Source: a virus (lineage: Duplodnaviria; Caudoviricetes). From it: a stretch of 64,000 nt of DNA. The DNA lies in the IMG/VR virus record IMGVR_UViG_3300042013_000067, positions 128,001 through 192,000 of that record; one strand, 5' to 3'. This document shows positions 49,137 to 52,906 of this stretch, one piece after another (position 1 is the first letter of the stretch; each line of letters starts with the position of its first letter). The notes under the pieces are model-generated. The model was not told the origin of the DNA and searched no databases. It saw nothing but the letters and a program-made list of their open reading frames with translations. Made by a program: the position numbers and the translations under genes.

Positions 49137-49207
49137 CGGACATAAGCCCTCTCCTACGGGAGAGGGTATCTCTTTCTTTCTATGTACACAACTAGACAGG
49201 AGGTATT

Positions 49208-49375
49208 ATGGTACCCTGCTTTAAACTATCGCCACGTCGCCTAGCGGCACTGGATGAGAAAGTAGATAACCGAGCTAAATCGCTGGCTATGGTTAAACGC
49301 TTCCAGGATGCACAGAAGCAATTAGAAAAGGTCTGTGCCGATAAAGGCATCCCTGTTCCAGTGATGGTCTGCTAA
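49208..49375 (+). CDS. 55-aa hypothetical protein
   Basis: AGGAGG RBS; MVPCFKLSPRRLAALDEKVDNRAKSLAMVKRFQDAQKQLEKVCADKGIPVPVMVC. Confidence 0.75.
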   Translation: MVPCFKLSPRRLAALDEKVDNRAKSLAMVKRFQDAQKQLEKVCADKGIPVPVMVC

Positions 49376-49383
49376 AATATACT
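49371..49383 (+). promoter_or_regulatory. Possible middle promoter GCTAAAATATACT (second copy at 47976-47988)
   Basis: Exact 13-mer occurs twice; resembles the recalled phiKZ middle motif AAnnnTAC. Confidence 0.45.
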
Positions 49384-49394
49384 GGACAGGTAAT

Positions 49395-49700
49395 GGTATA
49401 CGGGGATGGCGGTGATTCGCTATTCCTGTACATTAGCTCTGAGTGTTCCCCCAACCGGGCGCGTAGCCACGCTCATTAGCTTCTTAGCAACACGAAACCG
49501 TAGGGTCTAAACAGTTAGTCTGTTAACTGTGGACGATCTAGGAGGCGCAGCGCCAAACCCTAATAGGGTAGTAAGGGTAAGACAGATACTTATCCAAGCC
49601 GCAGCCCGACACCGAGCCGAAAGCGTACGTAGGCACTTGGCCACTGGGGTAATCAGTGGATACCGCTACTCTAGTTCCCCTGGGGTAGTGGTAAGCGAAA
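49395..49700 (+). ncRNA. Candidate ~300-nt structured ncRNA of unknown class
   Basis: At least five clean hairpins found by hand, no credible ORF, upstream AAAATATAC motif and its own downstream terminator. Confidence 0.6.
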
Positions 49701-49701
49701 A

Positions 49702-49736
49702 GCATAGCCCGCTCTTACGGGAGCGGGCTTTATGCC
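49702..49736 (+). terminator. Terminator closing ncRNA candidate A
   Basis: GCATA-GCCCGCTCT-TACG-GGAGCGGGC-TTTATGCC. Confidence 0.8.
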
Positions 49737-49803
49737 ATGTTTAAATAAAAGAAATACATTTTGTGTAATAGTATACGGTAGTGATTGCCGTTGTTTTGCA
49801 AAT

Positions 49804-49876
49804 TCCATGGTAGCTCAGTTGGTAGAGCAGCGCACTGTTAATGCGCGGGTCCGGTGTTCGAGTCACCGCCGTGGAG
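49804..49876 (+). tRNA. tRNA-Asn (GTT), CCA not encoded
   Basis: Acceptor TCCATGG/CCGTGGA, D arm GCTC-AGTTGGTA-GAGC, anticodon arm GCGCA-CTGTTAA-TGCGC, T arm CGGTG-TTCGAGT-CACCG. Confidence 0.96.
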
Positions 49877-49884
49877 CGATTTTC

Positions 49885-50150
49885 ATCGTTACTGTAAAAG
49901 GTAGCGAGAATTACCCTGATGCTCGGTTGCGTGGTATTACTGTCGTGGTGTACTGGGCAAACCGGAAAGAATCCCGAGAGTCGTGGTTCAGGGTGGACAG
50001 TTGTGGAGTAACTATCCATGGCAAACGAGTCGAGAATTACGCTGGCCAATCTGGTTAAACGTGGCAGCCTTTGAGCGGCCCCGCCTAATAGGGCTTCAAT
50101 GCCTATGGTCAGCACCCTTTAAGATCCTGTGGGCAACCACAGGGTTTTAT
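49885..50150 (+). ncRNA. Candidate ~265-nt structured ncRNA with a duplicated CGAGAATTAC motif
   Basis: Nested helices, two copies of a 10-nt motif, ending in a GCAA-tetraloop hairpin plus T tract. Confidence 0.55.
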
Positions 50151-50159
50151 TCCTTTTAT

Positions 50160-50266
50160 GGCTAGGAGCGGAGTTCGACTCTCCGCGGTGGTGGCCTTGG
50201 GTAGGCGCCGGTCCCGCTGGGATGGGCTTCGGAAACGACACAGAGGTTCGACCCCTCGCCTAGTCT
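50160..50266 (+). ncRNA. tRNA-like RNA with two TTCGA T-loops (pseudo-tRNA or Y-RNA-like)
   Basis: Closing stem GGCTAGG/CCTAGTC, T arms at 50168-50186 and 50243-50257, D-like arm GCC-TTGGGTA-GGC; no canonical anticodon arm. Confidence 0.65.
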
Positions 50267-50339
50267 TCTATTGGAGCATGCAATGCCAATCTACGAAGAG
50301 GTAAGAGTTCGATTGTGACCTTAACTGGAGCAATCGAAT

Positions 50340-50516
50340 ATGGCACGTTCAAGAAAAGAAGGCGGTACCCGGCGCGATGGTCGCGAATACTGGAGCCGTC
50401 GTCCTAACTGCAATGGTGCAGTGGGTAAGTTTGCCAAACGCATTATCCATGGTCAAGAGCGCTGTATCGCTAAAGACCTGACTCGTAGTGAACTGAAAGC
50501 TCATTTCTCGGAGTGA
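50340..50516 (+). CDS. 58-aa Arg/Lys-rich small protein
   Basis: GGAG RBS; MARSRKEGGTRRDGREYWSRRPNCNGAVGKFAKRIIHGQERCIAKDLTRSELKAHFSE. Confidence 0.8.
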   Translation: MARSRKEGGTRRDGREYWSRRPNCNGAVGKFAKRIIHGQERCIAKDLTRSELKAHFSE

Positions 50517-50548
50517 GCATAGAGCCGGGGGCAACCCCGGCATTATGT
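50516..50548 (+). terminator. Terminator (the same 18-nt hairpin recurs near 51869 after rtcB)
   Basis: GCCGGGG-GCAA-CCCCGGC flanks rtcB on both sides. Confidence 0.7.
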
Positions 50549-50579
50549 CTGTCCCCTCTTTCCAACCGTGTGAGGTTTT

Positions 50580-51839
50580 ATGCAACGCAAGACTTATGAA
50601 TTACTGGGTGGTGATACTCAAGCTGGATTCAAGCCAATTAAAGGCTGGACCATGGGTGTGCCAGTAGAGCCCGATGCCGTTAAACAGCTTAAGAATATAG
50701 CCTCGCTGCCCTTCATCCACTCGCATGTGGCGGTAATGCCTGACGTTCACGTCGGTAAAGGTGCGACCATAGGTACGGTCATCGCCACGCTGGGTGCAAT
50801 CATTCCAGCAGCGGTGGGTGTGGATATCGGTTGTGGCATGGCTGCACAACGTACCTCGCTAACCGCTAATGACCTGCCAGATAACCTGTCTGAGCTGCGG
50901 TCCTTCCTTGAGCAGTTGATCCCGCACGGGCGTACTGACAATGGTGGTGCGAACGATCGTGGTGCTTGGGGTTCTCAGGTAGCTCTGGATCACCAGATAG
51001 ACACAGTTCGTCTGGAAGCATCGCGTCTGCAGTTTGCACTGAATATGCTGGTGGCCAAGCATCCGAAGTTACAACGCGCTGCAGGCCGTGCATGGAATCA
51101 TTGCGGTACACTCGGCACGGGTAACCACTTCGTCGAGATCTGTCTGGATGAAGAAGACCGTGTATGGATCGTGCTGCACTCCGGTTCACGGGGCATCGGT
51201 AACGCCATTGGTACTTACTTCATCGATAAGGCCCAAGGTGAAATGCGGACACATCAGATCAACTTGCCTGATCGTGATCTGGCGTATTTGAAAGAAGGTT
51301 CGGTGTTGTATGCGGATTACCTCGATGCGATCAGCTGGGCACAGCGCTTTGCAGCATTGAACCGTACGGTGATGATGCATGCTGCTATTCAGGCACTGCA
51401 CATGTTCATGCAGCGGCCGATTGATTGTGATCTCGAAGCGGTCAACTGCCATCACAACTACGTGTCCCAAGAATACCACTTTGGTAACGATGTGCTGGTG
51501 ACGCGTAAGGGTGCGGTAAATGCACATGAAGGTTCGCTGGGTATTATCCCTGGTTCCATGGGGGCGAAGACCTTTATCGTCCGTGGTAAGGGTAATACCG
51601 AGTCCTTCTGTTCTTGCTCGCATGGTGCTGGTCGTGTGATGTCCCGTAAGGCGGCAGAGCGTACCTTCACCCTCGAAGACCACATTCGTGATACGGCTGG
51701 GATTGAATGCCGTAAAGATGAAGGTGTGCTCGATGAAACACCGAAAGCGTACAAGAACATCGATGACGTAATGTCCGCACAGGCAGAACTGGTCGATATC
51801 GTTCACACACTACGCCAAGTAGTTTGCGTTAAGGGTTAA
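50580..51839 (+). CDS. rtcB: RNA 3'-phosphate ligase RtcB
   Basis: AVMPDVH.G.G..IG, VGVDIGCG, LGTLGTGNHFVE, LHSGSRG.G, NCHHNY, GIIPGSMG, SCSHGAGR, DETPKAYK. Confidence 0.97.
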   Translation: MQRKTYELLGGDTQAGFKPIKGWTMGVPVEPDAVKQLKNIASLPFIHSHVAVMPDVHVGKGATIGTVIATLGAIIPAAVGVDIGCGMAAQRTSLTANDLPDNLSELRSFLEQLIPHGRTDNGGANDRGAWGSQVALDHQIDTVRLEASRLQFALNMLVAKHPKLQRAAGRAWNHCGTLGTGNHFVEICLDEEDRVWIVLHSGSRGIGNAIGTYFIDKAQGEMRTHQINLPDRDLAYLKEGSVLYADYLDAISWAQRFAALNRTVMMHAAIQALHMFMQRPIDCDLEAVNCHHNYVSQEYHFGNDVLVTRKGAVNAHEGSLGIIPGSMGAKTFIVRGKGNTESFCSCSHGAGRVMSRKAAERTFTLEDHIRDTAGIECRKDEGVLDETPKAYKNIDDVMSAQAELVDIVHTLRQVVCVKG

Positions 51840-51931
51840 ACGCCTACTTCTCGGAGTAGGCATAGTGCCGGGGGCAACCCCGGCTCTTATTCCATCTGGA
51901 GTAAAATATGTTAGCGAGTAAGGGATGTAAC

Positions 51932-52234
51932 ATGAACGACAATCCATTTAAAACATACTCTTGCCGGTTTGAGTTTACCCATGACTTTACGGCTTTTATT
52001 ATCGCTGCCGATAAACAAGGGGTGTTGATCAACACCAGTGAACTGCATCACCTTAAGAACGAGGGTGATAAGTACCCTGCTCCTGATGTCTACGTAGAGT
52101 TCAAGGCTGAAGCACCATTGGACATACTGCAAACTATTTTGAGACAGGGCTCTGATCTGCACGTGGGTCTTCAGACGCTTCGGCCAGTGGCCCTCAAAGA
52201 CAATCCTTTGGACCGTGATTACAACCTCATTTGA
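51932..52234 (+). CDS. Hypothetical protein
   Basis: AAGGGA RBS before MNDNPF. Confidence 0.75.
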   Translation: MNDNPFKTYSCRFEFTHDFTAFIIAADKQGVLINTSELHHLKNEGDKYPAPDVYVEFKAEAPLDILQTILRQGSDLHVGLQTLRPVALKDNPLDRDYNLI

Positions 52235-52252
52235 GAAAACTAAGGAATCGCC

Positions 52253-52753
52253 ATGTCACGATTAGCTACGATCCATGCGTCGATGGACGCTACGATGCAA
52301 GCGTTTCTGGAAGTCAGTGAAATCCAGAAGCACCTTATCAACCACTACGGGAAAGCGAGCTGGTTGCGGGATTTCCGCACCATGGGTTTCTACGTACCCC
52401 GGCAGAACGGGGCTACGGCATGGATGCTAAAACAGATCCTCCAAGAACCTGACTCGTTGTTGTTCTCCAAGTACCGGGACCATCTCATACAGAACTTCGA
52501 TGGTGCTGGGGTATGTGACGTAATGAAGCCCAAGACGTCCATGTTGTCTGCTGAAGTACAGGCTCGGATGCATGAGCCGTTTGAGTTGTCCCAGTGGATC
52601 AAGCACCAGAACTACCGTATTAAACCACTTAAGCTACTCGTGATCGAACAGTCCTGCGTGGTGTTCAACAACATCCGTATCAACAAGTTCTACGATTGGT
52701 TGGAGCAATCACCCGGCGTAACCAGTGAAACATTAATACTGCGCATCAACTAG
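52253..52753 (+). CDS. Hypothetical protein with a degenerate P-loop-like motif
   Basis: AAGGA RBS; PRQNGAT and LLVIEQ segments. Confidence 0.7.
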   Translation: MSRLATIHASMDATMQAFLEVSEIQKHLINHYGKASWLRDFRTMGFYVPRQNGATAWMLKQILQEPDSLLFSKYRDHLIQNFDGAGVCDVMKPKTSMLSAEVQARMHEPFELSQWIKHQNYRIKPLKLLVIEQSCVVFNNIRINKFYDWLEQSPGVTSETLILRIN

Positions 52754-52832
52754 ATATGTGTTCTTAGCACAATCACCATTCACGTTTTAAACCAGTCAGC
52801 AAGTGCCCGCTACGTCGAATGAGTCGACTTTT

Positions 52833-52906
52833 TGGCATGTAGCTCAGTTGGGTAGAGCAATCGGCTTTTAACCGATGGGTCGCAGGTTCAATCCCTGCCA
52901 TGCCAC
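52833..52906 (+). tRNA. tRNA-Lys (TTT), CCA not encoded
   Basis: Acceptor TGGCATG/CATGCCA, D arm GCTC-AGTTGGGTA-GAGC, anticodon arm ATCGG-CTTTTAA-CCGAT, T arm GCAGG-TTCAATC-CCTGC. Confidence 0.93.

Follow-up and report, generated by a model that had tools for sequence, protein, structure and literature searches.

Does a phage locus that packs transfer RNA (tRNA) genes, structured RNAs, a small basic protein and the RNA ligase gene rtcB into a few kilobases operate as one system? We addressed this question for a 64,000-nucleotide (nt) stretch, called the window below, which corresponds to bases 128001–192000 of IMG/VR virus record IMGVR_UViG_3300042013_000067, a 283,622-bp genome with direct terminal repeats. 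The nearest named relative of this phage is Pseudomonas phage Noxifer, which a recent preprint places among chimalliviruses. The original prediction saw in positions 49395–52906 a single counter-defence system of replacement tRNAs, decoy RNAs and a ligase. All of the listed parts are indeed present on the + strand within 3.5 kb (Table 1): the tRNAs were recovered by ARAGORN and Rfam, RtcB by PF01139, the small protein by phrog_7399, and structured RNAs accompany them. Overall, we suggest, with a probability of roughly 0.6, that the locus is a recombination-prone mosaic of RNA genes typical of Noxifer-like jumbo phages, in which rtcB is an accessory gene, and not one system.

Assortment of the parts among related phages

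We compared seven related lineages: the window, L106, L111, Noxifer, L006 together with its strain variant L013, L107, and L113. L006, a 268.7-kb record, was found through the small protein; L106, L107–110, L111, and L113 were found through homologs of that protein in a large protein collection. L013 was the sole result of a metagenome scan with the invariant untranslated region (UTR) of the small gene. The Noxifer record is a complete genome and the record behind L006 is 97% complete.

The order of elements differs from lineage to lineage. In the window it is RNA 1, tRNA-Asn, RNA 2, a tRNA-like element, the small gene, rtcB, and tRNA-Lys, and in L106 it is RNA 1, RNA 2, tRNA-Asn, the small gene, rtcB, and tRNA-Lys. 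The other five lineages lack rtcB at the locus. L111 has RNA 1, tRNA-Asn, a partial RNA 2, and the small gene. Noxifer has RNA 1, an extra open reading frame (ORF), tRNA-Tyr, tRNA-Asp, tRNA-Asn, a tRNA-like gene, the small gene, and tRNA-Lys. L006/L013 carries RNA 1, a tRNA-like gene, the small gene, and tRNA-Lys, with no tRNA-Asn. In L107 seven tRNAs (Thr UGU, Tyr, Leu UAA, Ser UGA, Asn, Asp, and Tyr; L107:290-2154) and three ORFs precede the small gene, and L113 retains tRNA-Leu and the small gene. Hence, the number of tRNAs among relatives varies from 1 to 7, and gene order, including that downstream of the locus, is permuted. The small gene is found downstream of the tRNA cluster in 7/7 lineages, whether rtcB is present or not. 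RNA 1 and tRNA-Asn are each present in 5/7, RNA 2 in 3/7, and rtcB in 2/7; tRNA-Lys was seen in 4/7, with several contigs incomplete. No RtcB is encoded anywhere in the complete Noxifer record or in the 97%-complete record behind L006. L111 lacks rtcB too, although the rest of its sequence is close to that of L106. The parts thus assort independently, the outcome that the original prediction had itself named as speaking against it, and a single integrated island is therefore not supported.

An island of this kind, in which tRNAs, decoy RNAs, the small protein, and RtcB would jointly oppose abortive infection by tRNA- or rRNA-cleaving enzymes, now appears improbable. It would account for the co-orientation of the parts and for the adjacency of rtcB to the locus in two lineages. 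The two tRNAs of the genome are also two of the three published targets of the PARIS nuclease AriB (10.1101/2025.02.04.636281), and a distant homolog of the small protein (38% identity, E 4e-4) is encoded 3–5 kb upstream of rtcB in Serratia and Klebsiella jumbo phages. However, beyond independent assortment, the small protein and RNA 1 are just as conserved in phages free of rtcB, and in Viktualia and HPP-Temi 50–56 kb separate rtcB from tRNA-Asn. In Psa21, two tRNA-Leu genes lie 3–4 kb upstream of rtcB; for Ea35-70, FBKp24, RVTF4, and RP12 no annotated tRNA was found within the examined 4–6 kb flank of rtcB. The chemistry of cleavage speaks against the island as well. RtcB is established to act on 2',3'-cyclic or 3'-phosphate and 5'-OH ends (cited in PMC7824862), while cleavage by AriB falls between nucleotides 40 and 41 and produces 3'-OH and 5'-phosphate ends (10.1101/2025.02.04.636281). 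RtcB cannot reverse such cuts because they lie outside its substrate range, and the part assigned to it in PARIS counter-defence has to be given up; against nucleases of the AriB class, replacement tRNAs alone help. For decoy RNAs we found no supporting evidence, and the genome contains no Ro60/TROVE, PrfH/RF-1, RtcA, or archease.

The locus may be better described as a conserved backbone with interchangeable parts. Its first element would be a stand-alone RNA 1 of ~340 nt, served by a promoter-like motif and a terminator of its own. Next would come a tRNA operon, in which RNA 2 (~270 nt) is co-transcribed with tRNA-Asn and presumably released by tRNA-processing enzymes, and then a variable slot filled with tRNA-derived debris. 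The backbone would further include the small basic helical protein, whose gene has a double hairpin at its 3' end and an invariant 5' UTR, and, farther on, tRNA-Lys(UUU) preceded by an element of its own. Terminator-like sites are enriched (11 observed versus 3.2 +/- 1.7 expected). Proximity of the parts would then reflect a recombination hotspot rather than a system.

The rtcB gene and its flanking repeats

The predicted RtcB of the window matches PF01139 over its full length (E 1.5e-128, profile positions 1-426 of 426) as well as phrog_1075 (E 8.7e-147). Its Asp/Cys/His motifs GVDIGCG, GNHF, LHSGSRG, HHN, and SHGAGR align to those of P. horikoshii PH1602, and the alignment covers the metal-binding residues and the His that takes GMP. 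By this comparison the enzyme looks intact and catalytically competent. It falls outside the PrfH-coupled subfamily (TIGR03073, 136.7 bits versus a cut-off of 271.8), and no RF-1 domain (PrfH) was detected anywhere in the genome with a control positive in 10 genomes. Neither is it part of an Rsr/Ro60-Y RNA system, as the genome yielded no TROVE/Ro60 match (control positive). RtcA, archease, and Rnl2-type ligases are likewise absent from the genome; the Rnl1 family search had no positive control and says nothing either way.

RtcB is carried by 706 phage records. The window protein is 67% identical to the Ea35-70/RAY type, and its gene shares 83% nucleotide and 91% protein identity with rtcB of L106. 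In a maximum-likelihood tree the seven sampled jumbo-phage RtcBs grouped together (support 100/99), apart from 23 bacterial sequences, six of them from Pseudomonas. This grouping argues that rtcB circulates within jumbo phages and was not recently captured from the host. A leader of ~25 nt before rtcB is kept in L106, RVTF4, Psa21, and RP12, where the neighbouring genes are unrelated (conserved positions: window 50542-50579, L106:5205-5244, L005:3995-4021, L115:4965-4994, L116:4960-4985). In RP12 (L116:4986-11251) rtcB is followed by genes for ribose-phosphate pyrophosphokinase, nicotinamide phosphoribosyltransferase, a hypothetical protein, and an RNA ligase, and, as in the window, the gene for thymidylate kinase precedes it by ~5 kb. 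In Pseudomonas phage PS119XW (MN103543.1 / NC_070882.1, 239559-241760) the match to RtcB falls into two parts that together extend over 2.2 kb instead of 1.25 kb, which suggests that this rtcB holds an intein, an intron, or an inserted endonuclease gene.

The original prediction noted that rtcB is bracketed by two copies of one hairpin. This stands in so far as the 283.6-kb genome contains exactly three copies of the 18-nt GCAA-tetraloop hairpin, two of them around rtcB. The true repeat, however, is longer: a 46-nt direct repeat with 85% identity between copies, each of which is predicted to form two hairpins in tandem (z -4.35 and -3.54 relative to shuffles). Two pairs of hairpin A differ on both sides between the copies, which indicates that its stem has been kept. 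The third copy of the 18-nt hairpin lies outside the window at genome positions 235700-235717 (L003:1504-1521), right after a 451-aa ORF and ahead of a small ORF with a strong ribosome-binding site.

Compared with Noxifer and L006, the window contains an extra 1.3 kb exactly between the repeat copies, and the proposal that rtcB behaves as a cassette is upheld by this comparison. Copy 2 leads into the sequence found behind the single hairpin of Noxifer and L006. Copy 1 is closer to the L006 allele and copy 2 to that of Noxifer. In L106 rtcB occupies the same place with the same 5' junction, but there is no second hairpin and a different gene starts directly after the rtcB stop codon. This latter gene (L106:6536-7095) is a stop-interrupted homolog of a ~190-aa ORF found behind the small gene in L006/L013 and probably a pseudogene. 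The lack of a second hairpin in L106 and the mixed alleles in the window argue that the repeat is not the intrinsic end of a mobile element; it appears to be a by-product of recombination at a conserved gene-end/terminator module. We propose that rtcB with its own leader, a member of the jumbo-phage RtcB lineage, sits directly behind the double hairpin in one sub-lineage, and that a second recombination with a Noxifer-like allele in the phage of the window remade the 3' junction, thereby duplicating 46 nt.

In T4-like phages, genes are shuffled by crossover at PeSL promoter/terminator stem-loop cassettes (PMC2839356, PMC4122927). The window resembles them in that the same conserved intergenic stem-loop module stands at both borders of an accessory gene present or absent among relatives, and in that mixed alleles are joined. 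However, the module of the window consists of a gene 3' end plus a terminator-like hairpin and has three core copies, and a scan limited to sigma-70-type sites found no recognisable promoter in or near the repeat. The locus may serve as a worked example of accessory-gene exchange in jumbo phages with a terminator-type double hairpin as the site of crossover.

The distribution across lineages favours a gain of rtcB. Several points weigh against this account and against the mosaic as a whole. The repeats could equally have mediated a deletion of rtcB in the relatives. The position of rtcB in RP12, also a few kb past thymidylate kinase, hints at an older residence. Some weak linkage between rtcB and tRNAs could exist, given their adjacency in the window and L106 and the tRNA-Leu genes near rtcB of Psa21. 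Promoters, RNA ends, and RNA processing are inferred throughout the locus.

Table 1. Features of the rtcB–tRNA locus, in window coordinates
Feature	Position	Strand	Remarks
Promoter-like motif GTAATGGTATACGG before RNA 1	49390..49405	+	function inferred
RNA 1, ~340-nt structured RNA	~49396..49735	+	intrinsic-terminator-like hairpin 49706-49729 at 3' end
Second copy of promoter-like motif and leader hairpin, upstream of tRNA-Asn	49765..49803	+	
tRNA-Asn(GUU)	49804..49877	+	ARAGORN and Rfam (64 bits); no encoded CCA
RNA 2, two-module structured RNA (~270 nt)	49878..50150	+	from tRNA-Asn 3' end to GCAA-tetraloop terminator 50120-50149
tRNA-like element (RNA 3)	50160..50268	+	7-bp closing stem, two T-arm-like and one D-arm-like hairpin; no canonical anticodon arm
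Structured 5' UTR of small gene, nearly invariant	50272..50339	+	fold z -2.62
58-aa basic protein (small gene), phrog_7399	50340..50516	+	
Double-hairpin repeat, copy 1	50496..50541	+	hairpin A within 3' end of small gene; hairpin B has GCAA tetraloop
rtcB leader and ribosome-binding site	50542..50579	+	
rtcB, predicted 3'-phosphate/2',3'-cyclic-phosphate to 5'-OH RNA ligase, 419 aa	50580..51839	+	
Double-hairpin repeat, copy 2	51839..51884	+	non-coding; like Noxifer small-gene-tail allele, continues into Noxifer gene-212 start region
108-aa ORF	51908..52234	+	no Pfam/PHROG match
166-aa ORF, phrog_2586	52253..52753	+	
tRNA-Lys(UUU)	52833..52906	+	ARAGORN and Rfam (69 bits); no encoded CCA

The two tRNAs and RNA repair

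tRNA-Asn(GUU) and tRNA-Lys(UUU) form the whole tRNA complement of the 283,622-bp genome. That both are targets of anticodon nucleases, as originally stated, agrees with published work: the AriB targets are Lys(UUU), Thr(UGU), and, with weaker cleavage, Asn(GUU) (10.1101/2025.02.04.636281), and the T5 versions of tRNA-Lys, -Thr, and -Asn all neutralise PARIS (10.1101/2025.02.04.636281; PMC11464382). We compared the phage tRNAs with those of Pseudomonas. The anticodon loops of both are the same as in Pseudomonas tRNA-Lys and tRNA-Asn, so there is no loop-level escape signature; the stems alone differ. The anticodon stem of phage tRNA-Asn is wholly unlike that of the host, with differences that include positions 40-41. 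In tRNA-Lys, the pair 29:41 is C:G in the phage versus U:A in the host. The phage thus resembles T5 in carrying copies of Lys(UUU) and Asn(GUU), and the 29:41 change adjoins the position cut by AriB in E. coli. Unlike T5, it has no tRNA-Thr, and Pseudomonas tRNA-Lys, with its C39, already lacks the UAAU determinant of E. coli. The two tRNAs appear to fit defence evasion, but weakly, because their loops equal those of the host, host tRNA-Lys does not have the E. coli motif, and translational demand is an alternative explanation.

According to that explanation, which we consider somewhat unlikely, the tRNAs (Asn, and Tyr in relatives) meet a translational demand above the host pool and have no part in defence evasion. 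Codon usage agrees with this in part: per 1000 codons the phage has 46.3 for Asn versus 24.4 in a Pseudomonas sample (1.9-fold), 38.2 versus 18.9 for Tyr (2.0-fold), and 44.6 versus 36.0 for Lys (just 1.24-fold), the host sample being small (14,253 codons from several Pseudomonas species). Identity of the anticodon loops with those of the host fits demand too, as do the additional Tyr and Asp tRNAs of Noxifer and the seven tRNAs of L107. However, the codons with the greatest excess over the host sample (TTA, CTA, ACT, and GTA) are served by no phage tRNA, and the retained set (Lys and Asn; Tyr, Asp, and Thr UGU in relatives) matches known nuclease targets.

The breaks that RtcB could repair differ from those made by AriB. 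In our proposal, the enzyme would rejoin tRNA (or rRNA) broken by metal-independent ribonucleases whose products carry 2',3'-cyclic phosphate and 5'-OH ends; PrrC, RloC, colicin E5/D-type, and HEPN-type enzymes are candidates. It would do so alone, since the genome encodes no archease, RtcA, Rnl2-type ligase, Ro60, or RF-1-domain protein. The site of action would be the cytoplasm, where tRNAs and ribosomes are located and where the RtcB homolog of the related Erwinia phage RAY resides (10.1101/2023.02.24.529968). Independently, the two tRNAs would top up or replace host tRNA-Lys and tRNA-Asn. These functions would run in parallel, either being possible without the other. A competent solo RtcB and two tRNAs that recur as anticodon-nuclease targets may thus be viewed as a testable pair of independent counter-measures, of which RtcB offers no answer to PARIS.

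T4 Pnkp/Rnl1 repairs tRNA-Lys cleaved by PrrC. By analogy, the window would likewise provide a phage enzyme for anticodon-loop breaks with 2',3'-cyclic phosphate and 5'-OH ends, and tRNA-Lys(UUU) is of concern in both cases. The two solutions differ: RtcB seals in one step, T4 combines end healing with ATP-dependent sealing, and the enzyme families are unrelated. Unlike for T4, no PrrC-like trigger is known for the host of the window phage. The combination of tRNAs and RtcB in jumbo phages is an already published idea, since tRNA provisioning together with RtcB/Rnl ligases was proposed in 2021 as their answer to tRNA attack (Iyer et al., PMC7824862). As for the stretch itself, the scan index contained nothing similar from any other genome. 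Systems of that survey and RAY gp048 resemble the window in having an RtcB of the same group, few phage tRNAs, and a chimallivirus-type phage, and by analogy would share the proposed role. In contrast to them, rtcB of the window abuts the tRNA locus and is flanked by the duplicated double hairpin, and no ATP-grasp ligase, kinase/phosphatase, or Ro60 is found beside it, in distinction to the systems in PMC7824862.

Structured RNAs, the small protein and neighbouring genes

Three non-coding RNAs were originally predicted in the locus. Two of them hold up, RNA 1 through covariation and RNA 2 through conservation, whereas the third, the tRNA-like element, is weak. We searched the window, Noxifer, L006, and L106 loci against Rfam at gathering and permissive thresholds and found tRNAs as the sole real families, with no match to Y RNA, tmRNA, RNase P, GOLLD, or ROOL. 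RNA 1 and RNA 2 are thus two uncatalogued structured RNA families of a phage tRNA locus, supported by covariation, and a by-product that may prove of lasting use.

RNA 1 begins just past a promoter-like motif and ends with a strong hairpin followed by a short T-rich TTTAT. Its fold is more stable than that of shuffled sequences (z -3.97), and an alignment of five lineages contains 68 consensus pairs, 20 of which show compensatory changes; no Rfam family matched it at E<=10. Two invariant hairpin loops, GUCUGU and ACAGAU (49510-49535 and 49575-49595), are complementary over 6 nt in 5/5 lineages. Because they are mutually complementary and invariant, the alignment suggests a possible kissing-loop tertiary contact between them. 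In L106 (3928-4040) the 5' hairpin of RNA 1 is swapped for ~100 nt with D-arm-like and T-arm-like tRNA pieces, a further tRNA fragment scattered in the locus. A degenerate 19-mer scan of IMG/VR with RNA 1 yielded one extra contig, L009, which has no similarity to the region and was dismissed as a chance match.

The promoter-like motif, GTAAT[AG]GTATAC, occurs twice in the 283.6-kb genome, before RNA 1 and before tRNA-Asn, and is kept in relatives. Given as GTAAT[AG]GTATACGG, it lies directly upstream of an RNA gene at both 49390-49405 and 49765-49780. A sigma-70-type promoter scan found no consensus site at the motif, which may represent a promoter class reserved for RNA genes. The stretch 49765-49803 shares 86-94% identity with the region before the first tRNA in Noxifer, L106, and L111. 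Similarly, the ~46 nt upstream of tRNA-Lys (52755-52800; L106:7133-7178) are identical in the window and L106 despite different preceding genes, and are a candidate promoter or processing element.

RNA 2 (fold z -2.92) is kept in three lineages, at 89% identity in L106 and as its 3' module only in L111. Each of its modules opens with a 14-nt direct repeat. RNA 2 follows tRNA-Asn in the window and precedes it in L106, and one compensatory pair is preserved across this swap. Its occurrence on either side of tRNA-Asn argues that it is a module of the tRNA-Asn transcript that can change place. For structured non-tRNA RNAs within a phage tRNA cluster there is a precedent in T4, whose cluster encodes the stable RNAs known as species 1 and 2, or RNA C and D. 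RNA 1 and RNA 2 would resemble these in being embedded in, and co-transcribed with, the tRNA cluster. Unlike the T4 species, they are larger (~340 and ~270 nt), and no sequence or Rfam relationship connects the two sets.

The tRNA-like element at 50160-50268 is the weakest of the three RNAs. Its fold (z -1.0) is no better than that of shuffles. It had no RF00005 match at E<=10, its sole Rfam match being mascRNA-like (20 bits, E 0.37), and it fails as a canonical tRNA both by the 5-bp/7-nt anticodon arm and by tRNA models. ARAGORN reports it solely when the threshold is lowered to 80%, and the call then includes C33 and two mismatches in the acceptor stem. Low-threshold ARAGORN calls of a tRNA-Ile with a 176-nt intron and of a permuted tmRNA were rejected, as they score below default, are not conserved, and have an acceptor stem that is half G-U. 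In Noxifer and L006 the same slot holds a tRNA with a ~25-nt anticodon loop (Rfam tRNA 36.3 bits in L006), and in L106 and L111 an unrelated 70-nt three-way junction. Between L013 (602-657) and L006 (4894-4949), 10 of the 12 differences over 1.9 kb are packed into 56 nt that comprise the 3' half of the tRNA-like element and the adjoining spacer, where they disrupt base pairing of the stems. The patch is either hypervariable or the result of recombination. We read the slot as fast-turnover, tRNA-derived material. Bacterial Rsr(Ro60)-YrlA-RtcB operons similarly place a tRNA-like RNA that mimics a T arm near rtcB. Unlike in them, there is no TROVE protein in the genome, the element is not conserved among close relatives, and a search of 49150-50600 against Rfam at E<=10 returned neither YrlA nor Y RNA.

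Due to this turnover, one could regard the whole region from tRNA-Asn to the small gene as a largely eroded tRNA array, made of pseudogenes and spacers that have no function of their own. We hold this as a tentative possibility, short of even odds. The slot content differs in every lineage, the fold of the tRNA-like element is like that of shuffles, the L013 substitutions are clustered and uncompensated, and the relatives range from a single tRNA to seven. Erosion does not account for the 89% identity of RNA 2 and its compensatory pair despite the swapped position, nor for the cloverleaf of Noxifer and L006, which is upheld by double changes in the acceptor and T stems.

The slot also bears on the idea that RtcB serves RNA of the phage itself, by joining interrupted tRNA-like halves or by repairing RNA damaged as a side effect of phage-induced decay. 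In archaea and eukaryotes RtcB acts as the splicing ligase for anticodon-loop introns, and the tRNA-like genes beside the small gene in relatives have a 16-25-nt insertion in the anticodon loop. However, the carriers of the interrupted genes, Noxifer and L006, are without rtcB, no splicing endonuclease was seen, and the uncompensated substitutions in the near-identical strain resemble decay. We consider such a role very unlikely. Similarly speculative, and a long shot, is that RNA 1, RNA 2, and the tRNA-like elements take an active part in tRNA conflict, as mimics that sequester anticodon nucleases or tRNA-modifying enzymes or as scaffolds that hand broken tRNAs to RtcB. If true, the locus would be a hotspot for trading RNA-based counter-defences among phages.

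The 58-aa protein has eight small homologs with an invariant core. Its structural model consists of a disordered basic N-terminus and a single long helix (mean pLDDT 71). In the 5' UTR (50283-50339) ~45 nt are identical in three phages, with the coding sequence less conserved, and the GGAG ribosome-binding site is buried within a 10-bp hairpin. Pfam, NCBIfam, and PADLOC returned nothing for this protein or for the 108-aa and 166-aa ORFs, the ORFs specific to Noxifer had no useful Pfam match, and a feature search in Atlas led to unnamed clusters only. The 166-aa ORF is present in all close relatives in differing order, and a search for related loci with this ORF found none. The 108-aa ORF shares 91% nucleotide identity with ORFs elsewhere in L106/L111; the alignment starts from query position 12-13, and the true start is probably the internal ATG at 51932. 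In L107, a GIY-YIG endonuclease gene is located ~3 kb downstream of the small protein.

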